This document shows positions 4,665-62,807 of a DNA stretch of 64,000 nucleotides, one piece after another (within the stretch, counting starts at the first letter, position 1; each line of letters starts with the position of its first letter). The DNA is from Eledone cirrhosa (Eukaryota). The notes under the pieces are model-generated. The model was not told the DNA's origin, searched no databases, and saw nothing but the letters and a program-made list of their open reading frames with translations. Made by a program: the position numbers and the translations under genes. The stretch lies in NCBI GenBank assembly GCA_964016885.1, contig OZ024742.1, positions 31,186,001 to 31,250,000 on the forward strand. Reading direction: 5' to 3'.

Positions 4665-7600
4665 ACACACACACACAGACACACACAGCCACACAGACAC
4701 ACACAGCCAAACACAGCGACACACAGCCACACACAGCCACACAGACATACACAGCCACACACAGACATACACAGCCACACACAGCCACACAGACACACAC
4801 AGCCACACAGACACACACAGCCACACACAGCCACACACAGCCACACAGACATACACAGCCACACACATACACAGCCACACACAGCCACACAGACACACAC
4901 AACCAAACACAGCGACACACAGCGACACACAGCCACACACAGCCACACAGACACACACAGCCACACACAGCCACACACAGCCACACACAGCCACACACAG
5001 CCACACACAGCCACACAGACACACACAGCCAAACACAGCGACACACAGCCACACACAGCCACACACAACCACACACAGCCACACACAGCCACACACAACC
5101 ACACACAGCCCCACAGCCACACACAGCCTCACAAACATACACAGCCACACACAACCACACACAGCCACACACAACCACACACAGCCACACACAGCCACAC
5201 AGCCACACACAGCCACACACAGCCACACAGCCACACACAGCCACACACAGCCACACACAACCACACAGCCACACAGCCACACACAGCCACACACAGCCAC
5301 ACACAGCCACACAGCCACACACAGCTACACAGCCACACACAGTCACACACAGCCACACAGCCACACACAGCCACACACAGCCACACACAGCCACACACAG
5401 CCACACAGCCACACACAGCTACACAGCCACACACAGTCACACACAGCTACACAGCCACACACAGTCACACACAGCCACACAGCCACACACAGCCACACAG
5501 CCACACACAGCCACACACAGCCACACAGACATACAGACATACACAGTCACACAGACACACACAGCCACACACAGCCAGACACAGCCACACACCCACACAG
5601 CCACACACAGCCACACACAGCCACACAGACATACAGACATACACAGCCACACAGACACACACAGCCACACACAGCCACACAGCCACACACAGCCACACAG
5701 CCACACACAGCCAAACACAGCCACACACAGCCACACACAGCCACACTGCCACACACAGCCACACACAGCCACACAGCCACACACAGCCACACACAGCCAC
5801 ACAGACATACAGACATACGCAGCCACACACAGCCACACACAGCCACACACAGCCACACACAGCCACACAGCCACACACAGCCACACACAGCCACACAGCC
5901 ACACAGCCACACACAGCCACACAGCAAAACACAGCCACACACAGCCACACAGCCACACACAGCCACACACAGCCACACACAGCCACACAGCCACACACAG
6001 CCACACAGCCACACACAGCCACACACAGCCACACAGACATACAGACATACGCAGCCACACACAGCCACACACAGCCACACACAGCCACACACAGCCACAC
6101 AGCCACACACAGCCACACACAGCCACACAGCCACACAGCCACACACAGCCACACAGCAAAACACAGCCACACACAGCCACACAGCCACACACAGCCACAC
6201 ACAGCCACACAGCCACACACAGCCACACACAGCCACACACAGCCACACAGACGTACACAGTCACACACAGCCACACACAGCCACACAGCCACACACAGTC
6301 ACACACAGCCACACAGCCACACACAGCCACACAGCCACACACAGCCACACACAGCCACACAGACATACAGACATACACAGTCACACAGACACACACAGCC
6401 ACACACAGCCAGACTCAGCCACACACCCACACAGCCACACACAGCCACACACAGCCACACAGACATACAGACATACACAGCCACACAGACACACACAGCC
6501 ACACACAGCCACACAGCCACACACAGCCACACAGCCACACACAGCCACACACAGCCACACACAGCCACACACAGCCACACTGCCACACACAGCCACACAC
6601 AGCCACACAGCCACACACAGCCACACACAGCCACACAGACATACAGACATACGCAGCCACACACAGTCACACACAGCCACACACAGCCACACACAGCCAC
6701 ACAGCCACACACAGCCACACACAGCCACACAGCCACACAGCCACACACAGCCACACAGCAAAACACAGCCACACACAGCCACACAGCCACACACAGCCAC
6801 ACACAGCCACACACAGCCACACACAGCCACACACAGCCACACAGCCACACACAGCCACACACAGCCACACACAGCCACACAGCGACACACAGCCACACAC
6901 AGCCACACACAGCCACTCACAGCCACACACAGCCAAACACAGCGACACACAGCCACACACAGCCCCACACAGCCACACACAGCCACACACAGCCACACAG
7001 CGACACACAGCCACACAGCGACACACAGCCACACACAGCCACACACAGCCACACAGCCACACACAGCCACACACAGCCACACACAGCCACACACAGCCAC
7101 ACACAGCCACACAGCCACACACAGCCACACACAGCCACACAGCGACACACAGCCACACACAGCCACTCACAGCCACACACAGCCACACACAGCCACACAC
7201 AGCCACACAGCCACACACAGCCACACAGCCACACACAGCCACACACAGCCACACACAGCCACACACAGCCACACACAGCCACACAGCCACACACAGCCAC
7301 ACACAGCCACACAGCGACACACAGCCACACACAGCCACACACAGCCACACACAGCCACACACAGCCACACAGCCACACACAGCCACACACAGCCACACAC
7401 AGCCACACACAACCACACACAGCCACACAGCCACACACAGCCACACACAGCCACACACAGCCACACAGCGACACACAGCCACACACATCCACACACAGCC
7501 ACACAGCCACACACAGCCACACACAGCCACACACAGCCACACACAGCCACACACAGCCACACACAGCCACACACAGCCACACACAGCCACACACAGCCAC

Positions 7601-9750
7601 ACACAGCCACACACAGCCACACAGCCACACACAGCCACACACAGCCACACAGCGATACACAGCCACACACAGCCACACACAGCCACTCACAGCCACACAC
7701 AGCCACACAGCCACACACAGCCACACACAGCCACACAGCCACACACAGCCACACACAGCCACACACAGCCACACACAGCCACACAGCCACACACAGCCAC
7801 ACACAGCCACACACAGCCACACACAGCCACACAGCGACACACAGCCACACACAGCCACACACAGCCACACAGCCACACACAGCCACACACAGCCACACAC
7901 AGCCACACACAGCCACACACAGCCACACACAGCCACACACAGCCACACACAGCCACACAGTGACACACAGCCACACTCAGCCACACACAGCCACACACAG
8001 CCACACACAGCCACACACAGCCACACACAGCCACACAGCCACACACAGCCACACACAGCCACACAGCCACACAGCCACACAGCCACACAGCCACACACAG
8101 CCACACAGCCACACACAGCCACACACAGCCACACAGCCACACACAGCCACACACAGCCACACACAGCCACACACAGCCACACACAGCCACACAGCGACAC
8201 ACAGCCACACACAGCCACACACAGCCACACAGCCACACACAGCCACACACAGCCACACACAGCCACACAGCCACACACAGCCACACAGACACACACAGCC
8301 ACACAGCGACACACAGCCACACACAGCCACACACAGCCACACAGCCACACACAGCCACACACAGCCACACAGACACACAGCCACACACAGCCACACACAG
8401 CCACAGAGACATACAGACATACACAGCCACACACAGCCACACAGAGCCACACAGCCACACACAGCCACACACAGCCACACAGCCACACACAGCCACACAC
8501 AGCCACACAGCCACACACAGCCACACACAGCCACACACAGCCACACACAGCCACACACAGCCACACACAGCCACCCACAGCCACACAGCCACACACAGCC
8601 ACACAGCCACACAGCCACACACAGCCACAGACACATACAGACATACACAGCCACACACAGCCACACACAGCCACACAGCCACACACAGCCACACACAGCC
8701 ACACAGCCACACACAGCCACACACAGCCACACAGCCACACACAGCCACACACAGCCACACACAGCCACACACAGCCACACACAGCCACCCACAGCCACAC
8801 AGCCACACACAGCCACACAGCCACACAGCCACACACAGCCACACACAGCTACACACAGCCACACACAGCCACACAGCCACACACAGCCACACACAGCCAT
8901 ACAGCCACACACAGCCACACACAGCCACACAGCCACACACAGCCACACAGCCACACACAGCCACACACAGCCACACACAGCCACACAGCCACACACAGCC
9001 ACACACAGCCACACACAGCCACACAGCCACACACAGCCACACAGCCACACACAACCACACAGCCACACACAGCCACACACAGCCACACAGCCACACACAG
9101 CCACACACAGCCACACAGCCACACACAGCCACACACAGCCACACACAGCCACACAGCCACACACAGCCACACAGCCACATACAGCCACACACAGCCACAC
9201 ACAGCCACACAGCCACACACAGCCACACACAGCCACACACAGCCACACACAGCCAAACACAGCCACACAGCCACACACAGCCACACAGCCACACACAGCC
9301 ACACAGCCACACAGCCACACATAGCCACACACAGCCACACACAGCTACACACAGCCACACACAGCCACACACAGCCACACACAGCCACACAGCCACACAC
9401 AGCCACACAGCCACACACAGCCACACAGCCACACAGCCACACACAGCCACACACAGCCACACACAGCCACACACAGCCACACACAGCCACACAGCCACAC
9501 ACAGCCACACACAGCCACACAGCCACACACAGCCACACACAGCCACACAGCCAGACACAGCCACACACAGCCACACACAGCCACACACAGCCACACAGCC
9601 ACACACAGCCACACACAGCCACACAGCCACACACAGCCACACACAGCCACACACAGCCACACAGCCACACAGCCACACACAGCCACACAGCCACACAGCC
9701 ACACACAGCCACACAGCCACACACAGCCACACACAGCCACACAGCCACAA
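4665..9750. repeat. ~5-kb simple satellite of mixed ACACACAGCC (10-bp) and ACACAGCC (8-bp) units
   Basis: Direct reading. It generates the spurious CVAVCGCVWL ORFs. Confidence 0.97.
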
Positions 9751-30661: not shown

Positions 30662-33060
<2,399 letters not shown>

Positions 33061-33181
33061 ATATTAATAAGAGGAATTCCAACTTTGTCTGATTTACTCG
33101 TTTTATTTACAATCCTTTAAAATATATATAATGGTATTATAATGAAATAGTATGATAGAATATTAAATTCTAAGTGTTAAT

Positions 33182-33220
33182 TGAACAAGTACTTTCATGC
33201 TTTCGCAATCTTCAGGTTCA
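33182..33220 (-). ncRNA. Minimal hammerhead, left arm
   Basis: Mirror of 38062-38100. Confidence 0.8.
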
Positions 33221-33595
33221 TGATATGTGGTGACAGTCGAGTTTGCAATTTTCAACTGTAATGAGATGGGTAAATTTCCTACCTTTTATACATTTTATAC
33301 AGAGAAAAGTGGCTCCAGAATGCAAAGCCCTGTAAACTGTATTTCGACCAATCAGTGTGTAGTTTCACTGAATTACTACAGCTGATTGGTTTAAGCGTCA
33401 CGGCTGGTTGAGCATGCTAACGACCAATAGTCATATCCAACGTATCAATTGTTTTGCTTTTTTGAAATGATGAAAATAGCATTTTCTATTAATCATCACC
33501 ATCAACATCACTTTTATTATTATTATTATTGTTGTTGTTGTTGTTGTTAGTGGTCGTGGTCATAGTGGTAGTAGAAGTAATACCCCTAGGCGTTA

Positions 33596-35631
33596 TTATT
33601 GTTCATTTAGCTTGGGTTTGAATTTATCAATAAAATTCTTTTCTTTGATTTTTCTCTTGATTTCATTTGGGCTGTGTAATTTGTAGAATGGGAATATTAT
33701 AAATATTCCCTGACCACATGTTGCCAGGTGGCCGCTTAGGGGTATCTGACGGACATTTGGGTCTCTGATTTGTTGACGGTGTACCCGTGCACGTTCCGAT
33801 AGTGCATTTCCAGTTTGACCGACATATAGTTCTTCACAATTCGGGCATTTAATGCAGTAAATTAGATTTCTGCTTTTGCAGTTCATATTTGCATTTGTGA
33901 ATATTTTTCCAGTTTTTGTTTTCATATATTGACCGGCGTGTATGGATTGACATGTGCCGCATCGATTATCATTGCATTTAGATACAGTGAATGATTGGTC
34001 TTTGTTGTTAAGGTCAAACTTTGCTTTTGTTAGCAATTGCTTCAAATTTTTTGGCTGTCTTTTACTAAGAGTCAAAGATCGATCTGTGATTAAGCCTTTT
34101 AATTCATTACTTTGAGCAATGATCGGTAGGTTTGCTTTGGCAGTGTTGAAGATATTCTGGTGACATGGGTTGTGTGTCATTATAAATGGTATGACCAGTT
34201 CTTGGTTTCTTCTTCTTTGGGTTGTTCTAAGTTGTTGTATAGGTATTTTTATAGCCCGCTGTATGCCATTTTCTATAAGTAGAGATGGGTATTTTTGTTT
34301 GAGCAAAAATTCTCTTAGTTCTGTTAGGCGTTTGTACCTGGTATTCGTATCTTCTACAATGGTACAAATTCTTCTGGCTAGGCAGTATGGGATGTTGCGT
34401 TTTGTATGAGGTGGATGGCACGACTTAAAATTCAGATATTGATGGGTGTCTGTGTGTTTATAATATATATCCGTGGTAATGGTGGTGTCGTTTTTGATTA
34501 TCATTATATCTAGGAATGGTAATTTGGTCCTACTCATCTCTTTTGTGAATTGGAGAGATGGGTGTAGGTTATTCAGGAGGATATTGAACTCATCCAGAGT
34601 ATCTAAAGATTCTGTCCAGATGATGAAACAGTCGTCAAGGTATCTCTTCCAAGATTTTTCAATGTACTTTCTAAAGTCAGTACTATATTTTTCCTCTATT
34701 TCTTGGTAGAGTTGTTGTTCTAAGTATCCCATTACAGAGTTCGCGTAAACGGGAGCAAACTTCGTTCCCATCTCTGTGCCTCTAATTTGGATGTAATTCT
34801 TTCCATTGAAGAAGAAAGTGTTGTTTTCCAGAATAAGTTTAACTGCGTCTAATATAAATGGCGCTGTGAATCTAATGGGAATCACTTCTCTATGTTTTTC
34901 CACCCAGTATTTAACCGCCTTTATTCCTAAATCATGTGTAATGTTGGTGTAAAGGCTTACCACATCAAAACTGAGTAGAAGTGAATTCGTTTCCGTGGTT
35001 TTGGGAAGATGGGACAGGAAGTCGATATCATCCCGGATGAAACTGGGTATGTGAATACATAGTGGTTTCAAAATAATGTCAACAAAATTGCTTAGACGGT
35101 GAGTGGGGCATGTTGGACCAGCTATAATAGGTCTAAGTTTTAAGTCTTTTGGGTGTCATAATTTAATGTACTCACTGTTTTGTTCTCTTACTGCCAGTTG
35201 TATTTCTTTTGACTTGTGAACTTTCGGTAGGCCATACAGGTTGCTGGGTTTCGGCTCAAAATTGGTGATGTAGTCTCTTTCCTTATCAGTAAATGAGTTG
35301 TGGTATTTTGAAGCCAGGTTGTTGATCTTCTTCATGATGTTGTGGTCTATATTTGACGGTATTTCATGATAGAATGTTGTGTCTTTCAGTTGTTCCTCAA
35401 CCAAATCCTTGTAGTATTCAGTATCCATTATAACAACTGCACCCCCTTTATCTGCTTGTTTAATTATTATTGTTTTATCATTTTGTATACGTTTAAGTGC
35501 AGACATTTCTGATTTGTTAATGTTTGGCCTAACATTAGTATTATGTCTAAGAGGAAATTTAGACAGGATGTCAATGTATTGGTCGAGATAGATATTTCTT
35601 CCTTTTGGCGGAGTGAAATTTGATTTATTCA
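33596..35631 (-). pseudogene. PLE RT/GIY-YIG ORF, left arm; 5'-truncated, one in-frame TGA (35156-35158)
   Basis: Mirror of 35651-37686. Confidence 0.9.
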
Positions 35632-35650
35632 AAAGGAAGAAATATCTATC

Positions 35651-37686
35651 TGAATAAATCAAATTTCACTCCGCCAAAAGGAAGAAATATCTATCTCGAC
35701 CAATACATTGACATCCTGTCTAAATTTCCTCTTAGACATAATACTAATGTTAGGCCAAACATTAACAAATCAGAAATGTCTGCACTTAAACGTATACAAA
35801 ATGATAAAACAATAATAATTAAACAAGCAGATAAAGGGGGTGCAGTTGTTATAATGGATACTGAATACTACAAGGATTTGGTTGAGGAACAACTGAAAGA
35901 CACAACATTCTATCATGAAATACCGTCAAATATAGACCACAACATCATGAAGAAGATCAACAACCTGGCTTCAAAATACCACAACTCATTTACTGATAAG
36001 GAAAGAGACTACATCACCAATTTTGAGCCGAAACCCAGCAACCTGTATGGCCTACCGAAAGTTCACAAGTCAAAAGAAATACAACTGGCAGTAAGAGAAC
36101 AAAACAGTGAGTACATTAAATTATGACACCCAAAAGACTTAAAACTTAGACCTATTATAGCTGGTCCAACATGCCCCACTCACCGTCTAAGCAATTTTGT
36201 TGACATTATTTTGAAACCACTATGTATTCACATACCCAGTTTCATCCGGGATGATATCGACTTCCTGTCCCATCTTCCCAAAACCACGGAAACGAATTCA
36301 CTTCTACTCAGTTTTGATGTGGTAAGCCTTTACACCAACATTACACATGATTTAGGAATAAAGGCGGTTAAATACTGGGTGGAAAAACATAGAGAAGTGA
36401 TTCCCATTAGATTCACAGCGCCATTTATATTAGACGCAGTTAAACTTATTCTGGAAAACAACACTTTCTTCTTCAATGGAAAGAATTACATCCAAATTAG
36501 AGGCACAGAGATGGGAACGAAGTTTGCTCCCGTTTACGCGAACTCTGTAATGGGATACTTAGAACAACAACTCTACCAAGAAATAGAGGAAAAATATAGT
36601 ACTGACTTTAGAAAGTACATTGAAAAATCTTGGAAGAGATACCTTGACGACTGTTTCATCATCTGGACAGAATCTTTAGATACTCTGGATGAGTTCAATA
36701 TCCTCCTGAATAACCTACACCCATCTCTCCAATTCACAAAAGAGATGAGTAGGACCAAATTACCATTCCTAGATATAATGATAATCAAAAACGACACCAC
36801 CATTACCACGGATATATATTATAAACACACAGACACCCATCAATATCTGAATTTTAAGTCGTGCCATCCACCTCATACAAAACGCAACATCCCATACTGC
36901 CTAGCCAGAAGAATTTGTACCATTGTAGAAGATACGAATACCAGGTACAAACGCCTAACAGAACTAAGAGAATTTTTGCTCAAACAAAAATACCCATCTC
37001 TACTTATAGAAAATGGCATACAGCGGGCTATAAAAATACCTATACAACAACTTAGAACAACCCAAAGAAGAAGAAACCAAGAACTGGTCATACCATTTAT
37101 AATGACACACAACCCATGTCACCAGAATATCTTCAACACTGCCAAAGCAAACCTACCGATCATTGCTCAAAGTAATGAATTAAAAGGCTTAATCACAGAT
37201 CGATCTTTGACTCTTAGTAAAAGACAGCCAAAAAATTTGAAGCAATTGCTAACAAAAGCAAAGTTTGACCTTAACAACAAAGACCAATCATTCACTGTAT
37301 CTAAATGCAATGATAATCGATGCGGCACATGTCAATCCATACACGCCGGTCAATATATGAAAACAAAAACTGGAAAAATATTCACAAATGCAAATATGAA
37401 CTGCAAAAGCAGAAATCTAATTTACTGCATTAAATGCCCGAATTGTGAAGAACTATATGTCGGTCAAACTGGAAATGCACTATCGGAACGTGCACGGGTA
37501 CACCGTCAACAAATCAGAGACCCAAATGTCCGTCAGATACCCCTAAGCGGCCACCTGGCAACATGTGGTCAGGGAATATTTATAATATTCCCATTCTACA
37601 AATTACACAGCCCAAATGAAATCAAGAGAAAAATCAAAGAAAAGAATTTTATTGATAAATTCAAACCCAAGCTAAATGAACAATAA
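35651..37686 (+). pseudogene. PLE RT/GIY-YIG ORF, right arm (Cys-linker, Neptune-like); 5'-truncated, one in-frame TGA (36124-36126)
   Basis: ADKGG, LYGLPKVHK, RPII, SFDVVSLYTNI, GTEMGTKFAP, WKRYLDDCF, CNDNRCGTC, LIYCIKCPNCEELYVGQT, H..H, PKLN. Confidence 0.9.
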
Positions 37687-38061
37687 TAACGCCTAGGGGT
37701 ATTACTTCTACTACCACTATGACCACGACCACTAACAACAACAACAACAACAATAATAATAATAATAAAAGTGATGTTGATGGTGATGATTAATAGAAAA
37801 TGCTATTTTCATCATTTCAAAAAAGCAAAACAATTGATACGTTGGATATGACTATTGGTCGTTAGCATGCTCAACCAGCCGTGACGCTTAAACCAATCAG
37901 CTGTAGTAATTCAGTGAAACTACACACTGATTGGTCGAAATACAGTTTACAGGGCTTTGCATTCTGGAGCCACTTTTCTCTGTATAAAATGTATAAAAGG
38001 TAGGAAATTTACCCATCTCATTACAGTTGAAAATTGCAAACTCGACTGTCACCACATATCA

Positions 38062-38100
38062 TGAACCTGAAGATTGCGAAAGCATGAAAGTACTTGTTCA
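38062..38100 (+). ncRNA. Minimal type I hammerhead in the PLE 3' pLTR
   Basis: TGAAC-CTGAAGA-TTGC(GAAA)GCAT-GAAA-GTAC-TT-GTTCA. Helix III is the palindrome AGTACT. Confidence 0.8.
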
Positions 38101-38430
38101 ATTAACACTTAGAATTTAATATTCTATCATACTATTTCATTATAATACCATTATATATATTTTAAAGGATTGTAAATAAAACGAGTAAATCAGACAAAGT
38201 TGGAATTCCTCTTATTAATATAATCTTCTATACACAATCATACACACCCGTGTATATTTACCTATCTATATCTATATGTATATATATATATGTATATATA
38301 TATGTATATATATGTATATATATATGTGTATATATATATATGTATATATATATTTATATATATGTATATATATATATATATGTGTATATATATATATATG
38401 TATATATATGTATATATATATATATATGTG

Positions 38431-38508: not shown

Positions 38509-38694
<186 letters not shown>

Positions 38695-39256
38695 GTTTTG
38701 CGAGGTTTTTTATATGAAATCGTGTGTCGAAACAGATATTGTTATATTTGGGGAGGGTCATATTTGCGTAATATTGCCAGAATTAATAACAGAACACACT
38801 CACTGTTTGGTTGGTTTTCGCTTCTCGCTGTCTTTTATATATATATATCTGCGATCTAACTTACTCGGTCCTCAATGTTGCCATTGACTGACCGGCGGTC
38901 AAAAATAATACAGATACAATATAGACACAAACACATATATATAGTTTACATAATTTACATAAATCTTTCGTTGCACATCTGCAACATCGTCAGTGGTGTT
39001 ATATTCATTGTTCCTCCTGTTGTGTTGTATGTCTACGCCATTTTTTTTTTGTTCAGTCTGTCTATATATTTATTTATTTATTTGCTTGTTTGTTTATCTT
39101 ATTTTATTTTGTCTTCTTTGCGCATGCGTTTGCGTGTGTGTATAGTGTGATGTGTGACTAGTGTGTATAGTGTTGTGTCTGCTGGGTGACTAGTGTGTGT
39201 TTATGTGCTTGTGTATGTATTTATTTATCTTATTTTATTTAATTTTATTTACTTAT

Positions 39257-40856
39257 TTATACTTCTCTTAGGTCAGTGTTGTTTGTTTGGGTGTTGTTGT
39301 TGTTCCACTCATTCTTTCTGTTTAGCTTTGGTCTTCTAATTTCTATTTCACTGGCCTCTCTGATTTGCCTATCTGCTGGGTCATTCCTATGTTTAGATAT
39401 TATTCTAATTTCTATGTTGTCTATGTTACCGTCATGTTGTTGTCTAGCATGTTCGTATAGTACTGACCCGTTTTTTCGTCCTTTTAGTTCCCCCCAGTGT
39501 TGGTCTATCCTTTCACCTATGCTACGAGCTGTCTCACCTATGTATGTTGTTGTCATGTTTCTGCAAGTACCCTCTGTACATCTTATGCTATAGACTACGT
39601 TTCTAGTTTTACAGTTTATCCGGGGGTTCACCTTACAAATGATACATTTCCTATTGGTACAGTGGGTTTTCTTAAAAGGGTAGGTTTTGCTGATCAGGGA
39701 TTTTATGGTGGTTCCTGGCTTTTCTACCACCTTTATTTTTAAGTGGGTCTTTCTCAGGGCCTTTCTACACTGGTTAGCTAATTTCCCTCCAGGGGTGGCG
39801 TCCACAAACATGACACTCTGATATCTCTGGTTGTCGTACCATGATGTGGCCTTCCCTATCTTATGTCTAGCCCTATCTAAGCTATTCCATGATTTGCTCC
39901 TGTATAGTGGGCAAATTCCTTTCATGTCCAGTTCTATGAGGGTCTTATACTTTTCCATGGCTCCTTCGTATACTCTGACTCTGTCTCTTTGGTTGTAGCC
40001 AGAGAACTGCATGCGGTTGATGAAGTGTTGGATGTGTCCTTCCATTTCTGTTGGGTCGCACATGCTGGACACATTCTTCATCACTCGTACCAAATCTGCG
40101 ATCAGAATATTAAACTTAGCACTACTGGACATTGCTGAGTTTTTGAGTATCAGGTATTTGGAGGCCATGGGTTTAGCATAGTGTGAGTGGAGAATTTGGG
40201 CTCTCTCGTCTATAGTGTTAATCCAGAGTTCTGTGTCTAATACAGGTAGTCTATTGTTAGGGTGTTTGGAAGGGAAGTCTATAGTTACAGTTATACTCTG
40301 GTGTATGGAATTAGCTATCTGCTGGATGCTTTCCATCGTGCTACGTTCTAAATCAAACTTGTTAGTGCTCTCTAGTGGGGGTGTTCTTATAACTATATTG
40401 ATATCGTCTACATAACGAGAGTACATGATGAGGTCTATGGAGCTTTCATTAAGGAGATCTTTAAGTCTCCTTTCCCACCATACCATGAAAAGGTTGGCAA
40501 CATCACCAGCTATGCTGACGCCGATGGCTGCTCCCTCATTTTGGGTGTAGATTTTCTCATTGAACTTAAATATGTGGCCCTTTAGGGTAGTTTTGATACT
40601 AGCCCCTATTGCATGTGCGACCATTTTTCTTACCTGATCAGTGTTTTGGGGGTCCGTATAGCTTTGGTCCACCCAATCCACCTTCCTATGGGAGTCTTTT
40701 TAGCCATTGAGGTTATGGTGGGGGGTCTACCTCTTATAGGTCTACTAGGGCAGAAACATCTAAGGTCATGGCTGTCTAGGTAGTCAGTGTCGTAGGTAAG
40801 TCTAAGTAGGAGGCCCAGTTCGTCTGTGTCGACGTCGCAGAACTCCACCTCACTCT
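39257..40856 (-). pseudogene. PLE RT C-terminal half + GIY-YIG, left arm
   Basis: GAAIGVSIAGDVA, YSRYVDDIN, CTNRKCIIC, VVYSIRC..C...YIGETARS. Confidence 0.9.
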
Positions 40857-43184
40857 TTAATAAAAGAGTTTGCATACCACAGCAAATAGATGACGAGACG
40901 GAGGCACAGTTCACCATAGCTAGAAACAAGATTAGACAAGTAGTAGACAGGTACACTATGAGACAGAGCAGACCAGAGGCCCAACAACTTGGGATAAAAC
41001 CTGTAGAAGGCTTGGTTAGCCTCAAGCAGCGCACAAGGGATGGTGAGGTAGTGTGTCTACCCACAGATAAGTTCTGGTAGGATGTCAATAGATAGCATGC
41101 CGAACTACATCGAGGCAATGCAACCCCACATCACCAACACGAGCGAAGTTGCACAACTAACACACGATGGGAGAGAAAAAATCCTCAACGCTCACATGAT
41201 GATGTGGACTGACATCCTAAAGCCAAGCAGACGCACTGCCAACAACTTCCAGGCGTCTAACAATGGCATACCACCCTTGTATGGGCTCCGCAAGGACCAC
41301 AAGACAGTCGACGACCCGACAACAGGACCACCAACAAGACCCGTATGCGGAGCTAATATAGCTAGCAACTACAGGATCTCCTACTTCCTCTCAATGGTTA
41401 TACGCCCCATAATCAAGATGTCCCAGATGTATGTGAAAGTACAGAGGACCTCCTCAGCAGAATCAGTGAGTGCAACAAAAACAGGAGCCTATCCAACTGC
41501 ATAATAGGCAGCATGGATGTGGTGTCACTGTACCCATCCATTAACATTGATTTTGCTGTGAAAAGATGTGTGGAGATGATCATTGAGAGTGAGGTGAAGT
41601 TCTGCGATGTCGACACAGACGAACTGGGCCTCCTACTTAGACTTACCTACGACACTGACTACCTAGACAGCCATGACCTTAGATGTTTCTGCCCTAGTAG
41701 ACCTATAAGAGGTAGACCCCCCACCATAACCTCAATGGCTAAAAAGACTCCCATAGGAAGGTGGATTGGGTGGACCAAAGCTATACGGACCCCCAAAACA
41801 CTGATCAGGTAAGAAAAATGGTCGCACATGCAATAGGGGCTAGTATCAAAACTACCCTAAAGGGCCACATATTTAAGTTCAATGAGAAAATCTACACCCA
41901 AAATGAGGGAGCAGCCATCGGCGTCAGCATAGCTGGTGATGTTGCCAACCTTTTCATGGTATGGTGGGAAAGGAGACTTAAAGATCTCCTTAATGAAAGC
42001 TCCATAGACCTCATCATGTACTCTCGTTATGTAGACGATATCAATATAGTTATAAGAACACCCCCACTAGAGAGCACTAACAAGTTTGATTTAGAACGTA
42101 GCACGATGGAAAGCATCCAGCAGATAGCTAATTCCATACACCAGAGTATAACTGTAACTATAGACTTCCCTTCCAAACACCCTAACAATAGACTACCTGT
42201 ATTAGACACAGAACTCTGGATTAACACTATAGACGAGAGAGCCCAAATTCTCCACTCACACTATGCTAAACCCATGGCCTCCAAATACCTGATACTCAAA
42301 AACTCAGCAATGTCCAGTAGTGCTAAGTTTAATATTCTGATCGCAGATTTGGTACGAGTGATGAAGAATGTGTCCAGCATGTGCGACCCAACAGAAATGG
42401 AAGGACACATCCAACACTTCATCAACCGCATGCAGTTCTCTGGCTACAACCAAAGAGACAGAGTCAGAGTATACGAAGGAGCCATGGAAAAGTATAAGAC
42501 CCTCATAGAACTGGACATGAAAGGAATTTGCCCACTATACAGGAGCAAATCATGGAATAGCTTAGATAGGGCTAGACATAAGATAGGGAAGGCCACATCA
42601 TGGTACGACAACCAGAGATATCAGAGTGTCATGTTTGTGGACGCCACCCCTGGAGGGAAATTAGCTAACCAGTGTAGAAAGGCCCTGAGAAAGACCACTT
42701 AAAAATAAAGGTGGTAGAAAAGCCAGGAACCACCATAAAATCCCTGATCAGCAAAACCTACCCTTTTAAGAAAACCCACTGTACCAATAGGAAATGTATC
42801 ATTTGTAAGGTGAACCCCCGGATAAACTGTAAAACTAGAAACGTAGTCTATAGCATAAGATGTACAGAGGGTACTTGCAGAAACATGACAACAACATACA
42901 TAGGTGAGACAGCTCGTAGCATAGGTGAAAGGATAGACCAACACTGGGGGGAACTAAAAGGACGAAAAAACGGGTCAGTACTATACGAACATGCTAGACA
43001 ACAACATGACGGTAACATAGACAACATAGAAATTAGAATAATATCTAAACATAGGAATGACCCAGCAGATAGGCAAATCAGAGAGGCCAGTGAAATAGAA
43101 ATTAGAAGACCAAAGCTAAACAGAAAGAATGAGTGGAACAACAACAACACCCAAACAAACAACACTGACCTAAGAGAAGTATAA
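40857..43184 (+). pseudogene. PLE RT + GIY-YIG, right copy, four single-base frameshifts
   Basis: ORF pieces 40826-41080, 41082-41504, 41513-41812, 41761-42702 and 42711-43184 are colinear with the element at 38-2320. Confidence 0.9.
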
Positions 43185-43443
43185 ATAAGTAAATAAAATT
43201 AAATAAAATAAGATAAATAAATACATACACAAGCACATAAACACACACTAGTCACCCAGCAGACACAACACTATACACACTAGTCACACATCACACTATA
43301 CACACACGCAAACGCATGCGCAAAGAAGACAAAATAAAATAAGATAAACAAACAAGCAAATAAATAAATAAATATATAGACAGACTGAACAAAAAAAAAA
43401 TGGCGTAGACATACAACACAACAGGAGGAACAATGAATATAAC

Positions 43444-43484
43444 ACCACTGACGATGTTGCAGATGTGCAACGAAAGATTTATGT
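43444..43484 (+). ncRNA. Minimal hammerhead in the pLTR (mirror copy at 38957-38997, minus strand)
   Basis: CA-CTGACGA-TGTTGCA(GATG)TGCAAC-GAAA-GATT-TA-TG. Helix I is short. Confidence 0.6.
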
Positions 43485-43708
43485 AAATTATGTAAACTAT
43501 ATATATGTGTTTGTGTCTATATTGTATCTGTATTATTTTTGACCGCCGGTCAGTCAATGGCAACATTGAGGACCGAGTAAGTTAGATCGCAGATATATAT
43601 ATATAAAAGACAGCGAGAAGCGAAAACCAACCAAACAGTGAGTGTGTTCTGTTATTAATTCTGGCAATATTACGCAAATATGACCCTCCCCAAATATAAC
43701 AATATATG

Positions 43709-52452: not shown

Positions 52453-52808
52453 TCCTGTGTCAGTGTTGAACAAAAAGGTGACGTGGTTGCCTAAACACTG
52501 TACAGCGTAATTCAGGCTTTTTGTTTGTTTACAAACGAACAAACCGAGCATTATAATAAATGTTCGTAAACTGATACGTGCATATATGTATGTGTGCCTG
52601 TATGTATATATATACATGCTACTGTACGTCTGTATACATATATGTATATACGTATACATACATACTTACATTTAAGTAAGTGCTGTACTAAGAGTGAGAA
52701 ATGAAATTTCGTTTCATTCTATTCCATTTATATATATATGTATATATATATAAGTATATATGTATATATGTATATGTATATATATATAAGTATATATGTA
52801 TATATATG

Positions 52809-52861
<53 letters not shown>

Positions 52862-52940
52862 GAATATATATATATATGTATATATATATAAGTCTACATG
52901 TATATATATGTATATATATATATTTATATATATATATGTT

Positions 52941-52971
<31 letters not shown>

Positions 52972-53002
52972 GTATATATGTATATATATGTATATATGTA
53001 TA

Positions 53003-53042
<40 letters not shown>

Positions 53043-53048
53043 GATATG

Positions 53049-53081
<33 letters not shown>

Positions 53082-53158
53082 GTATATATATATGTATATA
53101 TATATATATATGTATTTATATATGTATATATATGTGTATATATATGTATATATATATG

Positions 53159-53222
<64 letters not shown>

Positions 53223-53234
53223 TGTATATATATA

Positions 53235-54128
53235 TGGTATTTTCTTCGGGGTTATAAGAGGCTTAGCTCTATTTCTCGACCGTTATATCACGTGACTATC
53301 TCCCCCTCCGCCTTTTGGGATTCTTTCTCACGTCGTGTAGACGCGTTCTTGAGACTAGTAAAATGAGGTATCCTCTTGATAAGTCGGCAGACCTCGCAGG
53401 GACTCTATATCTTTATGATGTATTGTTTTTGTTTATGCCACGAAACTACGTAGTCGAGGAATCTAGGAGCAGTTTAGGTATGATACATTTTATTACTAAT
53501 TATATCTAAATGTTTCTTCTCTCTTCATAATGTATTTTTAACTCTGATACTGGTTCAATCTGGTTCAACCGGATTGGTCTGTCCGAGTCATTCATTGAGC
53601 AGCATCGGTGAGGTTGGCACCCTTAACTCGCGGTTGGGTGCGGATGCATTCATGTATGTGTGTGTGTCCGCATGTATCTGTGTGTTTCTAAATATATTGT
53701 TAATAACTCCCTCTGGTCGAGCAACCTTTGAAGTGTGGGGACTGCTGAAAAGCTTCCATTACTCATACTCCTCGTCTCCTTCACCACCTCTTCTACGGCT
53801 TCGATATAAATACCCCCTCCGCCTCCGTGGTATTTTATTCGGGGTTATAAGAGGCTTAGCTCTGTTTCTCGACCGTTATATCGCGTGACTATCTCCCCCC
53901 TCCGCCTTTTGGGATTCTTTCTCACGTCGTGTAGACGCGTTCTTGAGACTAGTAAAATGAGGTATCCTCTTAATAAGTCGGCAGACCTCGCAGGGACTCT
54001 ATATCTTTATGATGTATTGTTTTTGTTTATGCCACGAAACTACGTAGTCGAGGAATCTAGGAGCAGTTTAGGTATGATACATTTTATTACTAATTATATC
54101 TAAATGTTTCTTCTCTCTTCATAATGTA
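53235..54128 (+). mobile_element. ~594-bp non-coding unit in 1.5 tandem copies with a variant hammerhead; retrozyme-like
   Basis: TGGTATTTT.TTCGGGGTTATAAGAGG at 53235 and 53828, flanked by (TA)n. Confidence 0.8.
53371..53460 (+). ncRNA. Type I hammerhead with U3:A8 core and long helix II (copy at 53965-54054 has G5A)
   Basis: TCCTC-TTGATAA-GT.GGCA...TGCC.AC-GAAAC-TACGTA-GTC-GAGGA. Helix III is the palindrome ACTACGTAGT. Confidence 0.78.
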
Positions 54129-54250
54129 TATGTATATATATGTATATATATGTATATATATGTATATATATATATATGTATATGTATATATATGTATATG
54201 TATATATATATGTATATGTATATATGTGTATATATATATATATGTATATG

Positions 54251-54299
<49 letters not shown>

Positions 54300-54328
54300 A
54301 TATATATATGTATATATATGTATATATG

Positions 54329-54396
<68 letters not shown>

Positions 54397-54428
54397 TATA
54401 TGTAGATATGTGTATATATATATGTGTG

Positions 54429-54477
<49 letters not shown>

Positions 54478-54536
54478 GTATATATGTGTATATATATATA
54501 TATGTGTGTATATATATATGTGTGTATATATATATG

Positions 54537-54617
<81 letters not shown>

Positions 54618-54618
54618 G

Positions 54619-54681
<63 letters not shown>

Positions 54682-54692
54682 GTATATATATG

Positions 54693-54761
<69 letters not shown>

Positions 54762-54762
54762 G

Positions 54763-54795
<33 letters not shown>

Positions 54796-54806
54796 GTATA
54801 TATATG

Positions 54807-54841
<35 letters not shown>

Positions 54842-54908
54842 GTATATATATGTATATATATATATTTATACATATATATATATATATGTGTATATATATG
54901 TATATGTG

Positions 54909-54955
<47 letters not shown>

Positions 54956-54982
54956 GTATATATATGTATATATATATATATG

Positions 54983-55033
<51 letters not shown>

Positions 55034-55094
55034 GTATATATATGTATATATATATATTTATACATATATATATATATATGTGTATATATATATG

Positions 55095-55141
<47 letters not shown>

Positions 55142-55158
55142 GTGTATATATATATATG

Positions 55159-55283
<125 letters not shown>

Positions 55284-55832
55284 TATTTACGTATCGAGAA
55301 AGAGAAAAAAAGGGGAGGATAGGTGATACATATAGTTATTTGCCAAGTAGTGTATGCCAAAGGTGCTCGATACTAGTGCCGGCAGTATTAAATATTCGAA
55401 GTGTTAATATTTAGTGGGCTAGAGAGTTGGCAGAGCGTAAGCACGTGGGAAAGTAAAAAATCGGAGAATAGACCGTTAAAACATGTTTATTTAAAACAGC
55501 ACCTACGTACGTTTCGCCCAGTTGGGCTCTCAGGGGTATAAATAATCACAAATGTTCCTTATATTGCTCGGAAAGAGTTTTTGGGGTTAAATCCACATCA
55601 AGGTTTATTGCTCGCAAAAATAGGTTGTTTTGATTTTGCAACAGCAGGTCAAGGGAGGTAACTCTGGCCGGTGTTAGGGAAGTCTATCCCGGACAATTTT
55701 TTTTTTTTTTTTAGCCGCATCTGTTTGTCTGAGGCTGGGTATGGTATGCAAGGATTGTTTCCTGGGTGTTATTTTGCAGCACCTGTCCGCCGGGGTGTTA
55801 AGACTTGTTGCAGGGAGATCCGGTGTACGGTT

Positions 55833-56717
55833 TCACTCCTCATCCTTAACCCATCTGAAGAAGAATATTTTTAAGCGATGTGTACAATTTATCGCTGTTT
55901 CAGCTCTGCTGTTGATGAGCTCATGGGGTGCAGTTATGATGTGGTAGAGCTCCATGAGGCAAATATCGCATTTACTCTTGAAGTTGTACGGTGCAGCCCT
56001 GCCGACAATCTCCCAGTGCGTGGAGAAGCTGATGTTTAAGTCCTTTAGTGATGTGATGTAGTCCGCGAGCGAAGTGGAGTGCCTTAGTTTTCTATTTGTG
56101 AAAGAGTGGAGATGTGTTCGAAACCTAATTTTGAACGGGCCGGAGGTAGCCCCTATATAATGTTTAACGCTATTGTGGCTAGTAATAGTGCATCTATATA
56201 TAACCCTATCAGTCAAGCAGTAACCTCTAAGGGGGCAGCATCCTCTGTCGCGGCAGTTGCAATTTCTGTCGTGGTTCCGTCTATTTCCCACGGTAAGGCT
56301 ATCATTGTTGCTGCCTACGTTGTTACCTACGCTACCGCAGCTGTCGTTAGCACCATTACAACCCACTGCACGCGGGGTGGTGCCATTGTTATTCCGCACG
56401 TCATGTCCTGCATGTTCCCCAGTCATTTCGCGGTTATGCTGGTTGCGTCTGCGGATGCCGTTGCCAACACTATTGGATGCTGCCAGGGAGTTGTTAAGGG
56501 TGATATAGTTATTGTCAGGTGTAGATGCGTCTGTGTGGAGGTGCTGTGTCTTGGTGATCTTACTGTGGTTCGTTGTTCCTATGATGTCTGCTAGATTAGG
56601 AGTAGTAGAGAAGGATATTTTTATATTGTTCCTATTAAGAATTTTTCTATACCTATGGTTGGGCGGGAAGTTCTTTTCTAAGGCTTTGAAGAACATCCGG
56701 GGTATGTTGGAGGCCAC
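55833..56717 (-). CDS. PLE C-terminal fragment with GIY-YIG endonuclease (CxCx5C linker)
   Basis: FPPNHRYRKILNRNNIKISFS, CNCRDRGCCPLRGYC, VIYRC..HYIGAT..FK.RF..H..SF, WEIV, CDICLME. Confidence 0.8.
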   Translation of the reverse strand: MASNIPRMFFKALEKNFPPNHRYRKILNRNNIKISFSTTPNLADIIGTTNHSKITKTQHLHTDASTPDNNYITLNNSLAASNSVGNGIRRRNQHNREMTGEHAGHDVRNNNGTTPRAVGCNGANDSCGSVGNNVGSNNDSLTVGNRRNHDRNCNCRDRGCCPLRGYCLTDRVIYRCTITSHNSVKHYIGATSGPFKIRFRTHLHSFTNRKLRHSTSLADYITSLKDLNISFSTHWEIVGRAAPYNFKSKCDICLMELYHIITAPHELINSRAETAINCTHRLKIFFFRWVKDEE

Positions 56718-56774
56718 AATCTTTCTCTACTACTCCTAATCTAGCAGACATCATAGGAACAACGATTATTTATG

Positions 56775-56811
56775 ACCCTGAGAAGCCTAACTGGGCGAAA
56801 CGTACGTAGGT
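56775..56811 (+). ncRNA. Hammerhead-like motif with non-canonical core CTGAGAA (mirror at 55501-55536 has CTGAGA)
   Basis: ACC-CTGAGAA-GCCTA(AC)TGGGC-GAAA-CGTACG-TA-GGT. Confidence 0.55.
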
Positions 56812-56867
56812 GCGGTTTTAAATAAACATATTTTAACGGTCTATTCTCCGATTTTTACTTTCCCACG

Positions 56868-56899
<32 letters not shown>

Positions 56900-59923: not shown

Positions 59924-61891
59924 TTAGGTAAGGCGGGTCTTCTCTATTACTGAGTACCGCCAAAGGTCTCGGTCCAGTGACATTGTCTTGGAGAGGTGTA
60001 AGCGTGTGAGGTCGGAATTTATCAGCTCGTCCCATGTTTTTCTGGGTCTGCCTACTCCGTGGCTACCGTCTATCTTTATTGCCCTGCACTTTGTTATACA
60101 GCTGTCGTCTTTCATGCGCATCACGTGACCGTACCAACGTAGCCTTCTCTCGAGTAAACAACATCTGATCCCTCTTATTTCTAATTTTTTCCTTAGTTCG
60201 TCTATGCTTTGCCGTTCACGTATATTACTATTGCACATCCAGCGGAGCATGCAAGCTTCGTTCCTCTCTAGTCTGCGTATATCCTCTGCACACAATGCCC
60301 AGGTCTCACTGCCATGCAGCATTGCTGTTCGTATGCAGGCATCGTATAACCTGCCTTTCATTTTTAGGCAGAACCCTCTAGCGGCTAATAGTGGTATAAG
60401 CTCTCTGAACTTTTTCCATCCAGTTCTGACTCTAGCTACTGTACTTTCAGAGCACCCTCCCCCACTGCTGATTTTGTCACCCAGGTAACGGAAGCTGTCC
60501 ACTATTTCTATAGAACCCTCTGCGCAGTTGAAGGAGCTAGTATTCTGTGGGCACTTGCTGCTACTTATTGCACCAGAGCACCGGCCACATGTAAAATCTA
60601 TGTTCTTAGTTAGCTTACCTGTGATCCCACTACATCTTTTATGCACCCATACTTTGCATTTGGGACATAAAATGGAGTTTCTACCTACGCCTTTCCTACA
60701 CACTGAGCATGGCCACTTCCCAGATGGGACCGCCGCCTTATTTTCTTTCCTACAAACTAGAACTTTAGTCTTAGCCAGGTTAATTTTAAGGCCTTTTGAT
60801 TCTAGGCCGTGCTTCCATGTTTGGAATTTCTTCTCTAGTTCGGTCATTGATTCAGCTATGAGCGTTAGATCATCTGCGTATAGGAGTTCCCATGGGAAGC
60901 CGGTCTTGAACTCCTCTGTTATAGCCTGAAGGGCAATAATAAATAGTAGGGGGCTAAGAACAGAGCCCTGATGGACACCAACTTTTACGCTAAACTCTTC
61001 ACTATATTCGTTGTTAATTCTAACCTTACTGACTGTTTCTTTATACATGGCTTGTATAGCTCTCACAAGCCATTCGTCAACACCTAGTTTTCTAAGAGAC
61101 CACCAGATAATGGAACGGGGAACTCTGTCGAAGGCTTTCTCCAAGTCGACGAAAGCTAAGTATAGGGGTTTACTTTTAGCTAGGTACTTCTCCTGTAGTT
61201 GTCGTACAATGAAAAGAGCGTCTGTGGTACTTTTGCCTGACACAAACCCGAACTGCATTTCATCTAGATCAATTCTCTCTCTGATTAGTTGCGCTATTAC
61301 TTTTTCCGTGACCTTCATGACCTGGTCGATTAATTTAATGCCTCTATAGTTACTCCTATCTAGGGCATCTCCTTTTCCCTTATAGCAGTTAACGATGATG
61401 CTGCTACGCCAGTCCTTCGGAACAACCCCATTCTGTACGACTTGGTTAACTATCCGGGTGACCATGGTGTGTCCCACCGAACCAGATGCCTTCAGCATCT
61501 CAGCAACTATTTCCGAAGGACCAGCCGCCTTACCCGTCTTCATATCTTTGATTGCCTTGCTTATTGTACTACCCTGGACTAACACTGCTGGTCCCTCTAT
61601 TGGGTCGATGTGGGGGAGACTGTCTTTCTCCCATTTGTTCTCCTCATTTAGAAGCCTTTCGTAGTGACACTTCCAAGCTACCTTCTTATCAGCGTCGGTG
61701 ATGGCAAGTATGCCATCATCGTTAAGTACACACTTCTCCCCGACAATATCACGGTTTTCCTTGACACATTGCCTGGCAATCCTGAACATCTCACGTTTTT
61801 GGTCCTCATGTTGTAGAACATGCTTGAACTTTCTTTCCTCTGCTTCCCTTCTTGCGAAGTACACTTGTCTCCTAGCTTCCCTCCTGGCCAC
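59924..61891 (-). CDS. LINE reverse transcriptase with embedded PHD-like Cys/His finger
   Basis: NYRGIKL, QFGFVSGKSTTDA, FVDLEKAFDRV, GVHQGSVLSPLLF, LLYADD, CSVC..CPKC..VHKRC..CGRC, MLHGSETW, RLRWYGHV. Confidence 0.93.
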   Translation of the reverse strand: MARREARRQVYFARREAEERKFKHVLQHEDQKREMFRIARQCVKENRDIVGEKCVLNDDGILAITDADKKVAWKCHYERLLNEENKWEKDSLPHIDPIEGPAVLVQGSTISKAIKDMKTGKAAGPSEIVAEMLKASGSVGHTMVTRIVNQVVQNGVVPKDWRSSIIVNCYKGKGDALDRSNYRGIKLIDQVMKVTEKVIAQLIRERIDLDEMQFGFVSGKSTTDALFIVRQLQEKYLAKSKPLYLAFVDLEKAFDRVPRSIIWWSLRKLGVDEWLVRAIQAMYKETVSKVRINNEYSEEFSVKVGVHQGSVLSPLLFIIALQAITEEFKTGFPWELLYADDLTLIAESMTELEKKFQTWKHGLESKGLKINLAKTKVLVCRKENKAAVPSGKWPCSVCRKGVGRNSILCPKCKVWVHKRCSGITGKLTKNIDFTCGRCSGAISSSKCPQNTSSFNCAEGSIEIVDSFRYLGDKISSGGGCSESTVARVRTGWKKFRELIPLLAARGFCLKMKGRLYDACIRTAMLHGSETWALCAEDIRRLERNEACMLRWMCNSNIRERQSIDELRKKLEIRGIRCCLLERRLRWYGHVMRMKDDSCITKCRAIKIDGSHGVGRPRKTWDELINSDLTRLHLSKTMSLDRDLWRYSVIEKTRLT

Positions 61892-61988
61892 TTGATAGTC
61901 TTCTCTACTTCCCCCATCCCGCCATACTTTCCAAGCCTGCTTTTGGCCTTAATTGACTCCTCCACCTTACTGTTCCACCACCATGTTA

Positions 61989-62702
61989 CTACTCGCTAAT
62001 TATCAGTCTATGTTGGGAGGTGAATTCTTCATGGGGGAGGGATTTAGTGTTAACAACAGACACTCTGTCACGTCTTCTGGTAAGGATATAATCTACCTGG
62101 CTTGTGTGTTCCCCCGATCTATAGGTGATCAAGTGATTGTCTCGTTTTTTGAAGTTAGTGTTACAGATAGTTAAGTTATTTGCGTCGCAGAATTCCAGGA
62201 TTCTGGAGCCTTCCTCATTTCTAGTACCGAACCCATAGCCTCCATGGATTCCGTCATAGCCGTCACAATGTTGTCCAACGTGACCATTTAGGTCGGCTGC
62301 AATAACTATATAGTCACTGTCGGTTATTTGGGAGGTAGCGAGCATCAGTGTCTCGTAGAATCTGTCTTTTATAGCGCCGGGCAGTCCGGATTGGGGTGCG
62401 TACGCAGATATTACTGTCACCGTAGTTTTATTGAGGACAAGTCTTATTTTAATTATTCTGTCGTTCACTCTATTTACGTCTATTATCTTATCTGCCCACT
62501 TTTCTGCTACCATGATTCCTACCCCACCCAACCCATTGTCATTTCCCACCCAGAAAAGCTTATAGCATCGTTCTTTACCCACGATGAATCTAGCCGACCC
62601 TCCCCTCCACCTGGTCTCTTGAATACAACAAACATCGACCTCCTTACGTTCAAGCATTTCTACAACCTCGTTAGAGCGACCCTTTAAGGTGCCTACATTC
62701 AT
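61989..62702 (-). CDS. LINE apurinic-like endonuclease domain
   Basis: NVGTL, CIQETRW, GVGI, SAYAPQ, DLNGHVG, VDYIL, QHR. Joined to TWWWN by a deletion at ~61990. Confidence 0.9.
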   Translation of the reverse strand: MNVGTLKGRSNEVVEMLERKEVDVCCIQETRWRGGSARFIVGKERCYKLFWVGNDNGLGGVGIMVAEKWADKIIDVNRVNDRIIKIRLVLNKTTVTVISAYAPQSGLPGAIKDRFYETLMLATSQITDSDYIVIAADLNGHVGQHCDGYDGIHGGYGFGTRNEEGSRILEFCDANNLTICNTNFKKRDNHLITYRSGEHTSQVDYILTRRRDRVSVVNTKSLPHEEFTSQHRLIISE

Positions 62703-62807
62703 GGTACCAACTCTGAAGTTTTGGATTGCGTTTGGAGGGTGGGAGCGGTGGGGCGCGGGGGGGATGGGGTTATGTTAGCCATGGATCTCGGGAATTTTAC
62801 CCGCCTT

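Follow-up and report, generated by a model that had tools for sequence, protein, structure and literature searches.

A high-copy non-coding 593-nt repeat family of Eledone cirrhosa with a hammerhead motif, probably a non-autonomous Penelope-like element

The genome of Eledone cirrhosa contains a high-copy, non-coding family of 593-nt units that lies in (TA)n tracts and carries a hammerhead motif. The family is probably a non-autonomous Penelope-like element (non-LTR retrozyme) whose RNA cleaves itself, becomes circular and is copied by a Hydra-clade reverse transcriptase; the cleavage, the circles and the mobilising partner are what we infer. One copy lies in the window (the whole 64,000-nt stretch analysed, from contig OZ024742.1), with the following parts.

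52729-53235 (no strand): left (TA)n target tract
53236-54129 (+): whole insertion, 1.5 units, 5'-truncated and stopping at the short 3' end of the family
53236-53828 (+): first unit, 593 nt, non-coding (longest ATG frame 78 codons as a circle)
53303-53312 and 53814-53823 (+): 10-nt C-rich motif, two per unit
53526-53535 (+): short 3' end of the family (unit position 300) with a TA-like junction, used at 54129 in the window copy
53536-53698 (+): 163-nt tail from the short end to the long end (unit positions 462-467), structured
53829-54129 (+): second partial unit, unit positions 1-300, 98.3% identical with one extra C
53958-54054 (+): second ribozyme copy, with a private G5A at 53972 and C17 at 54049
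54130-55280 (no strand): right (TA)n target tract; the tract call itself is 54127-55280

Direct reading of the sequence places 1.5 repeat units between (TA)n tracts on both sides, as had been claimed in an earlier reading made from the sequence alone (the sequence-only reading). The last base of the element is 54129, and its last 301 nt duplicate the first 300 with 4 substitutions and the extra C. By the spacing of the cut sites the unit measures 594 nt in this copy, which has a 1-nt insertion, compared with 593 nt in the family; the 594-nt monomer proposed earlier holds for the window copy and not for the family. Also as claimed, the unit is unlike a 609-bp unit of the same window outside the core (BLASTN with word size 7 gave no alignment), and the second copy reads TTAATAA, at 53970-53976. 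No frame exceeds 78 codons when the unit is read as a circle, indicating that it is non-coding. In the cleavage register, the monomer has a strongly self-paired predicted fold (z = -4.9). The 10-nt C-rich motif also occurs twice in the unit of a sister family, and a weakly similar stretch (E = 0.1) lies upstream of the ribozyme of Hydra-A, an autonomous family described below; the motif could be a promoter or a protein-binding site. Rfam returned only microsatellite-driven miRNA matches over the whole window, and for the element three weak unrelated matches and no hammerhead up to E=10, as would be expected if its models disallow a long helix II.

A relaxed type I descriptor gave 10 matches in the 64-kb window, and the U3-A8 matches were the site at 53371 and two sites in the 609-bp unit. 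The helix I, TTGATAA core, long helix II and palindromic helix III described previously were all located in the first ribozyme copy, which is laid out as follows.

53364-53369 (+): leader UGAGGU, predicted 5' strand of a pseudoknot
53371-53375 (+): 5' strand of helix I, with its partner at 53456-53460
53376-53382 (+): catalytic core UUGAUAA, with U3-A8 replacing C3-G8
53383-53441 (+): helix II domain of 59 nt, comprising a bulged basal stem (53383-53389/53436-53441), an internal loop and an apical stem at about 53396-53432 (z = -3.2)
53391-53396 (+): internal-loop strand ACCUCG, predicted 3' strand of the pseudoknot
53442-53444 (+): GAA after helix II
53445-53454 (+): palindromic helix III, ACTACGTAGT, with C17 next at 53455
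53455-53456 (+): predicted cleavage site after C17 (hammerhead numbering of PMC3088659)

Copy 1 has the 3-8 pair, G12-A13-A14, A15.1-U16.1 and H17 of a type I core, and is thus intact as a U3-A8 variant. The palindromic helix III had been taken to imply a dimer, and folding predictions agreed: pairing of the palindrome between two ribozymes was predicted at -12.9 kcal/mol compared with +1.5 kcal/mol for folding back, and two ribozymes were predicted to cofold as a swapped double hammerhead (-61.7 versus 2 x -24.0). Because helix I is swapped in this cofold, with each core cutting the site of its partner, the G5A of copy 2 would be expected to block the cut at 53455 rather than the one at 54049.

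The ribozyme motif of the family had 6,622 exact matches in the 3.0-Gb genome and none in the reversed control. Given this result and the few descriptor matches in the window, the motif at 53371 is not a chance occurrence. A genome-wide descriptor search had been proposed in the sequence-only reading, whose view that a class of elements and not a one-off mutation was involved is borne out by the 6,622 intact motifs of this family. A search at the DNA level gave 1,853 first-look candidates; among the best 40 of 1,853, which were scored, full units were 96-98% identical. Identity of 97% among the best-scoring matches suggests a young family. A sister family, 67-72% identical, likewise has a unit of 593 nt. 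The family is dispersed and high in copy number, its tandem non-coding units carry one type I hammerhead each, and autonomous Penelope-like elements occur in the same genome.

It had been allowed that the family consensus might be CTGATGA. Instead, UUGAUAA was present in 199 of 206 family units, a sample picked in part by a core-containing pattern. With a pattern accepting either core, U3-A8 was found in 98 of the 100 matches listed first and C3-G8 in none of them. UUGAUAA is the family core and G5A private decay. Private mutations were equally frequent in the ribozyme and the rest of the unit, so copies decay after insertion, G5A being such a change, and the window copy is probably inert as a source of monomers. 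By contrast, variants common to at least three loci avoid the ribozyme, numbering 2 over 56 ribozyme sites and 63 over 496 other sites (p = 0.047), as would be expected under selection. Among 40 loci not chosen by pattern, the same test was not significant, with 0 over 56 and 17 over 496 (p = 0.24). The two shared ribozyme variants, a bulged helix II base and a change of U.G to U-A in the predicted pseudoknot, both keep the structure.

When the 593 family was excluded, the pattern found 521 further motifs and none in the control; these counts were used because the 4,563 matches of another pattern were inflated by one abundant unrelated repeat. The 156 distinct motifs in the loci retrieved fell into 43 clusters when grouped at 85% identity, and 41 motifs were aligned after two clusters were set aside as inversion-junction artefacts. 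Across these divergent motifs, helices I-III paired in 88.6% of cells with 46 two-sided changes, a result reached in 0 of 500 shuffles, while slid controls were 28-41% paired; the shuffle takes no account of relatedness, and the core and first pairs were fixed by the search patterns. Two-sided change was seen at three of five helix I pairs, four of five basal helix II pairs and one of four helix III pairs. Helix II spans 48-65 nt in these motifs, with an internal loop separating the basal stem from an apical stem that varies, and helix III is in most cases palindromic over 8-12 nt, its sequence changing between motifs. The helix II domain folded better than z = -1.5 in only 22 of the 41 motifs, and RNAalifold on a MAFFT alignment recovered only helix III.

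A canonical-core pattern with the same fold gave 18 matches compared with 1 in the control. Fourteen were true C3-G8 cores; the other four were rejected because they matched through the leader. The claim that the rare core marks a class is accordingly right in that a class exists, but rarer families with the same fold carry the canonical CUGANGA. Similarly, helix II is long in both units for which the rare core had been linked to an enlarged helix II, but the U3-A8 ribozyme of Hydra-D, a Penelope-like family described below, has a short one. Since C3-G8 sister families share the fold and U3-A8 occurs with a short helix II, the class is not defined by the rare core; on present alignments it would be defined by an extended helix II with leader pairing, the core alternating. 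One C3-G8 family (L418-L430) has a helix II domain of more than 100 nt whose length varies by internal repeats, while its basal stem, leader pairing and palindromic helix III are all retained. Loci L068, L069, L079 and L080 belong to a tandem family of 523 bp in which TTGATAA and GAAAC are spaced as in a ribozyme but no helix I was recognised in the register used. The window itself holds further canonical-core hammerhead candidates with palindromic helix III at 51974 (+), 52416 (+), 63456 (-) and 15473 (-); the first two, 442 nt apart, may represent another tandem family. Outside this genome, viral contigs gave 120 loose matches, six with a downstream GAAA and none with convincing helices, and metagenomes gave four matches lacking the helices. 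These were judged by eye to be chance matches, in collections that exclude animal genomes and so are silent on distribution in animals.

The class has a second conserved feature, which the sequence-only reading had missed. A leader, UGAGG, precedes helix I by 0-2 nt, and the internal loop of helix II contains its complement, CCUCA/G. All five positions pair in 26 of the 41 motifs, four of five in 12 and fewer in 3, and leader complementarity was absent from the search patterns that found them. The mean Watson-Crick run was 4.05, compared with a shuffle maximum of 3.74 and with 2.70 for a window farther upstream. In C3-G8 motifs, CCUC loops go with G at the fifth leader position and UCUC loops with A, the latter seen in L370, L372 and L379, which are clean copies, and in five decayed copies. 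C3-G8 sister families thus have UGAGA/UCUCA in place of UGAGG/CCUCA, and a pattern forcing UGAGA/UCUCA gave 151 matches versus 19 in the control. In two more C3-G8 families the unforced sixth and seventh pairs match as well: UGAGAC/GUCUCA, with a helix II of more than 100 nt, and UGAGAAG/CUUCUCA.

The likely explanation, from structure prediction, is that the leader and loop form a pseudoknot replacing the usual contact between loop I and loop II. The two strands might instead form an alternative hairpin that sequesters the core and delays cleavage, or be two protein-bound motifs. Both strands flank the core and could close a hairpin around it, none of the pseudoknot pairs shows two-sided change within the 41 U3-A8 motifs, and the 609 family and Hydra-A, which have U3-A8 and a long helix II together with a stable helix III, show weak or no leader pairing. 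Compensatory change is seen only between families; there, however, the pairing covaries at the fifth and sixth pair. It is also compatible with helices I, II and III together and sits at the position of the loop I-loop II contact, where pseudoknots accelerate other hammerheads (PMC3088659, in the text available). We therefore regard the hairpin or protein-site reading as unlikely and retain the predicted pseudoknot.

Ninety insertions of the 593 family were classified, leaving out overlapping loci and pieces shorter than 150 nt. Fifty-five were inverted, consisting of two head-to-head arms, and 35 were direct. In 49 of the 55 inverted pairs an end at unit position 300 was combined with one at 458-472; the remaining six had one irregular end, and the same end was never used twice (0/55). 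Among the direct copies, 23 ended at 300, 11 at 463 and one elsewhere. If ends were chosen independently at this 23:11 ratio, the probability of 49 mixed pairs in 49 would be about 3e-18. As the short end lies at 300 and the long end at 458-472, one end carries a tail of about 163 nt. Relative to the cut site, the family ends lie about 77-80 and 243 nt downstream. Most arm junctions abut or overlap by a few bases. Arms longer than 593 nt were common (56 of 110, both arms in 12 of the 55 pairs), the longest measuring 3,787 nt. Only one of 145 5' ends fell within 5 nt of the cut site, and the omission of pieces shorter than 28 nt accounts in part for a surplus of 5' ends at unit position 1. In contigs from public runs the same ends pass into (AT)n, both ends in X1, whose contigs are possibly the source of the window itself, and the long end in X4 and X6; the four public runs consist of contigs, so that the lack of a pile-up of ends bears neither way on expression. 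The published signature of Penelope-like elements combines partial tandems with an inverted 5' copy and a one-sided tail, given as 30-40 bp (PMC8557442, in the portion available), and the family has all three together with 5' truncation.

These observations suggest the following model. A tandem copy would be transcribed, and two type I hammerheads would pair via the palindromic helix III and cut each other's site, the leader-internal loop pseudoknot standing in for the loop I-loop II contact (a prediction whose helices are supported by covariation). The 593-nt monomer would then be ligated to a circle, as in other animal retrozymes. A Penelope-like endonuclease, the putative enzyme, would nick (TA)n. 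DNA synthesis would start from either of two fixed TA-like sites, which are observed about 80 and 243 nt past the cut, and pass the junction for a variable length. Extension of both target strands in most sampled insertions would produce the observed head-to-head arms, one with each end.

Between loci, units diverged by 2.9%; the values within an arm (0.5%) and between opposite arms (0.35%) are lower and fit repeated reading of a circle. An element of the same type might dispense with the circle, its template being an uncleaved or poorly cleaved linear multimer and its long arrays arising by local duplication after insertion. Some arrays do look like such duplication (L474 and L475), and mosaic private variants in these two and in L006 and L020 fit it. 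Moreover, Penelope-type hammerheads are described as weak in vitro (PMC4209133), and in the accessible part of a recent study one of nine predicted retrozyme dimers cleaved in vitro, which counts against the model, the other eight Xenopus dimers remaining uncleaved (bioRxiv 10.64898/2026.07.22.740005). On the other hand, six rare variants are identical in both inverted arms of the 8-unit L164, the 10 units of L459 have no rare variant at all, and opposite arms are as alike as neighbouring units. The cleavage junction is also conserved across divergent families, although the searches forced part of it. A linear template therefore appears improbable, and we favor the circle.

Far less probable is that the unit represents no more than an autonomous element's pseudo-LTR, the loci being truncated 3' ends of that element. 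Xenopus retrozymes do resemble pseudo-LTRs (bioRxiv 10.64898/2026.07.22.740005, available portion), and Penelope-like families are dominated by truncated 3' ends. However, sequence upstream of the ribozyme re-enters the same 593-nt unit, for up to 10 units, the 90 insertions consist of unit sequence bounded mostly by (TA)n, the sister family has kept the unit length, and the unit lacks any frame above the 78 codons noted above. This reading is nearly excluded already, and the non-autonomous element remains the preferred one.

The window contains several autonomous Penelope-like elements. Two families have Hydra-clade motifs, and a member of one of them lies immediately beyond the right (TA)n tract.

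55281-56870 (-): Hydra-D, a truncated Hydra-clade Penelope-like element; separate insertion with an inverted arm and a 161-nt tail

Hydra-D gave 2,658 first-look candidates. In 25 of 30 of its ribozyme motifs the core reads UUGAGAA; helix III is palindromic and helix II short, and both window copies are decayed. Its ends lie about 60 and 223 nt past the cut, which gives the 161-nt tail. The second family, Hydra-A (L148 at 5343-9108 (-), L239 and L240), is autonomous and young, and occurs as tandem copies of 3,531 bp with many intact 784-aa frames and a 1.1-kb 3' region; in its U3-A8 ribozyme, helix II is long and bulged and loop III holds an 8-nt palindrome. The ends of Hydra-A are 17 and 97 nt past the cut (80-nt tail), and 19 longer homologues were found. 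Since Pfam found nothing in five Hydra-type frames, assignment to the Hydra clade rests on motifs, namely DKT, CxCX5C and no CCHH in Hydra-A and endonuclease-part features in Hydra-D. Two complete head-to-head Penelope-like insertions in (TA)n (33060-38263 and 38694-43702) have tails near 40 nt and a canonical-core minimal hammerhead; the arms of the first are 2,572 nt long and 100% complementary.

By geometry only, Hydra-D is the best candidate for the mobiliser, since its 161-nt tail is near the 163 nt of the family while the tails of the other elements are 80 or about 40 nt. Its distances from cut to end also overlap those of the L092 sister family, in which the short end is mostly 53-63 nt past the cut and the long ends are scattered, four of them at 224-242 nt. 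It is nevertheless quite possible that another Penelope-like family (Hydra-A, another Hydra family, a Neptune-like element or Naiad) mobilises the unit. None of the 11 element ends tested shares sequence with the 593-nt unit, and the 593 tail showed no similarity to that of Hydra-D (score 80 versus a shuffled mean of 79). In addition, the frames of Hydra-D reach at most 466 aa within the short flanks examined, compared with the many intact frames, U3-A8 ribozyme and long helix II of Hydra-A, and other (TA)n-targeting elements are abundant in the window. The match in tail length is what favors Hydra-D over these. A tblastn search with Penelope-like proteins over the fetched loci found no autonomous carrier of the pseudoknot-type ribozyme. 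Apparent carriers were rejected, L214 and L206 as separate insertions divided by a TA tract and L410/L417 as a nested insertion.

Comparison with known systems draws on the portions of the cited papers available to us. Non-LTR retrozymes consist of non-coding units in tandem that carry type I hammerheads and are expressed as circles, ligated mostly by a tRNA ligase (PMC7229834), and units of 51-972 bp with a Penelope origin were reported in 2026 (bioRxiv 10.64898/2026.07.22.740005). The 593 family resembles them in being tandem, non-coding, dispersed, high in copy number and found alongside Penelope-like elements (PMC7229834), in its highly self-paired monomer and in its length, which is within this range. 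It differs in exceeding the 170-400 nt of RNAs shown as circles and in its U3-A8 core, 59-nt helix II and predicted pseudoknot in place of the canonical loop contact. In the available descriptions of retrozymes we did not find strict (TA)n targeting, inverted arms or the two-end rule. Plant LTR retrozymes differ from the family, having type III hammerheads in LTRs and a 4-bp target duplication instead of type I motifs, tandem units and (TA)n flanks.

Minimal hammerheads of Penelope-like elements share with the family type I topology, a short helix I, a palindromic helix III and predicted dimers (PMC4209133). U3-A8 occurs in the Cercyon elements of Schistosoma mansoni, with about 1,300 matches (PMC4209133), and together with palindromic helix III and dimer action has been described for Penelope-like elements (PMC4209133; review PMC6765202). 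The variant core reported earlier is confirmed and has this published precedent. Unlike the 593 family, minimal hammerheads have a helix II of 7-8 bp, are mostly single rather than in tandem units, and are described in a main text that does not use the word pseudoknot (PMC4209133). The "long helix II" of viral hammerheads is 6 bp (PMC13725137). Pseudoknotted hammerheads, about 40% of representatives and in all three types, have a stem I-stem II pseudoknot comparable to the one predicted here, and natural U3-A8 covariation is known among hammerheads (PMC3088659). Their stem II is commonly very short, whereas in the present class the predicted pairing strand lies in the internal loop of a helix II of 48 to more than 100 nt, in a dimer-type ribozyme of a mobile repeat.

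With the Hydra clade the family shares the (TA)n target, partial tandems, inverted 5' copy and one-sided tail (PMC8557442); unlike autonomous Hydra elements, which have a single frame with RT and C-terminal GIY-YIG, as seen in Hydra-A, it encodes no protein. The Hydra ribozymes in File S2 of PMC8557442 all have CUGA cores and loops II of at most 10 nt, and two spike-moss PLE-X ribozymes in that file have loops of about 30 nt. By comparison, the two Hydra families here have U3-A8 and tails of 80 and 161 nt rather than 30-40 bp. We did not find the combination of features, or a two-end rule in a retrozyme, in the literature covered, which includes few subscription papers. What appears to be new is the combination, as U3-A8, palindromic helix III and pseudoknots have each been published. 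At the level of sequence, the element has the features of a new structural variant that would work like a non-LTR retrozyme.

Thousands of predicted ribozymes in one genome escape Rfam, implying that similar families may be missed elsewhere. The natural compensatory pairs (C3-G8 versus U3-A8 and UGAGG/CCUCA versus UGAGA/UCUCA) can serve for testing the fold of a dimer-gated pseudoknotted hammerhead, and a small non-coding element whose inverted insertions strictly combine a short end with a long one offers a simple substrate for studying Penelope-like integration and the one-sided tail. The family would also link a retrozyme to the little-studied Hydra clade. More tentatively, there may be a superfamily of retrozyme circles of roughly 500-600 nt, with a dimer-gated pseudoknotted hammerhead and an extended helix II, missed by Rfam and short-helix descriptors, that rides Hydra-clade elements, each insertion arising from two priming events at two fixed circle sites. 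If so, tail length would fingerprint the mobilising enzyme and open a direct route to the mechanism by which inverted insertions of Penelope-like elements are made.

The 609-bp family (24608-26089 in the window) gave 1,707 first-look candidates at 97-100% identity. It has a U3-A8 core with A opposite A at the base of helix II, a long stable helix III and only one 3' end, situated about 240 nt past the cut, with no inverted arms among the matches listed. The two units had been placed in one class; the U3-A8 core and long helix II are indeed common to both, but the stable long helix III, the one 3' end and the lack of inverted arms among the matches listed make the 609-bp unit a different type, which probably uses a different mobiliser. 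Elsewhere in the window, at 59924-62774 (-), lie frames of 674 and 261 aa that we take to be a LINE-like reverse transcriptase and endonuclease.
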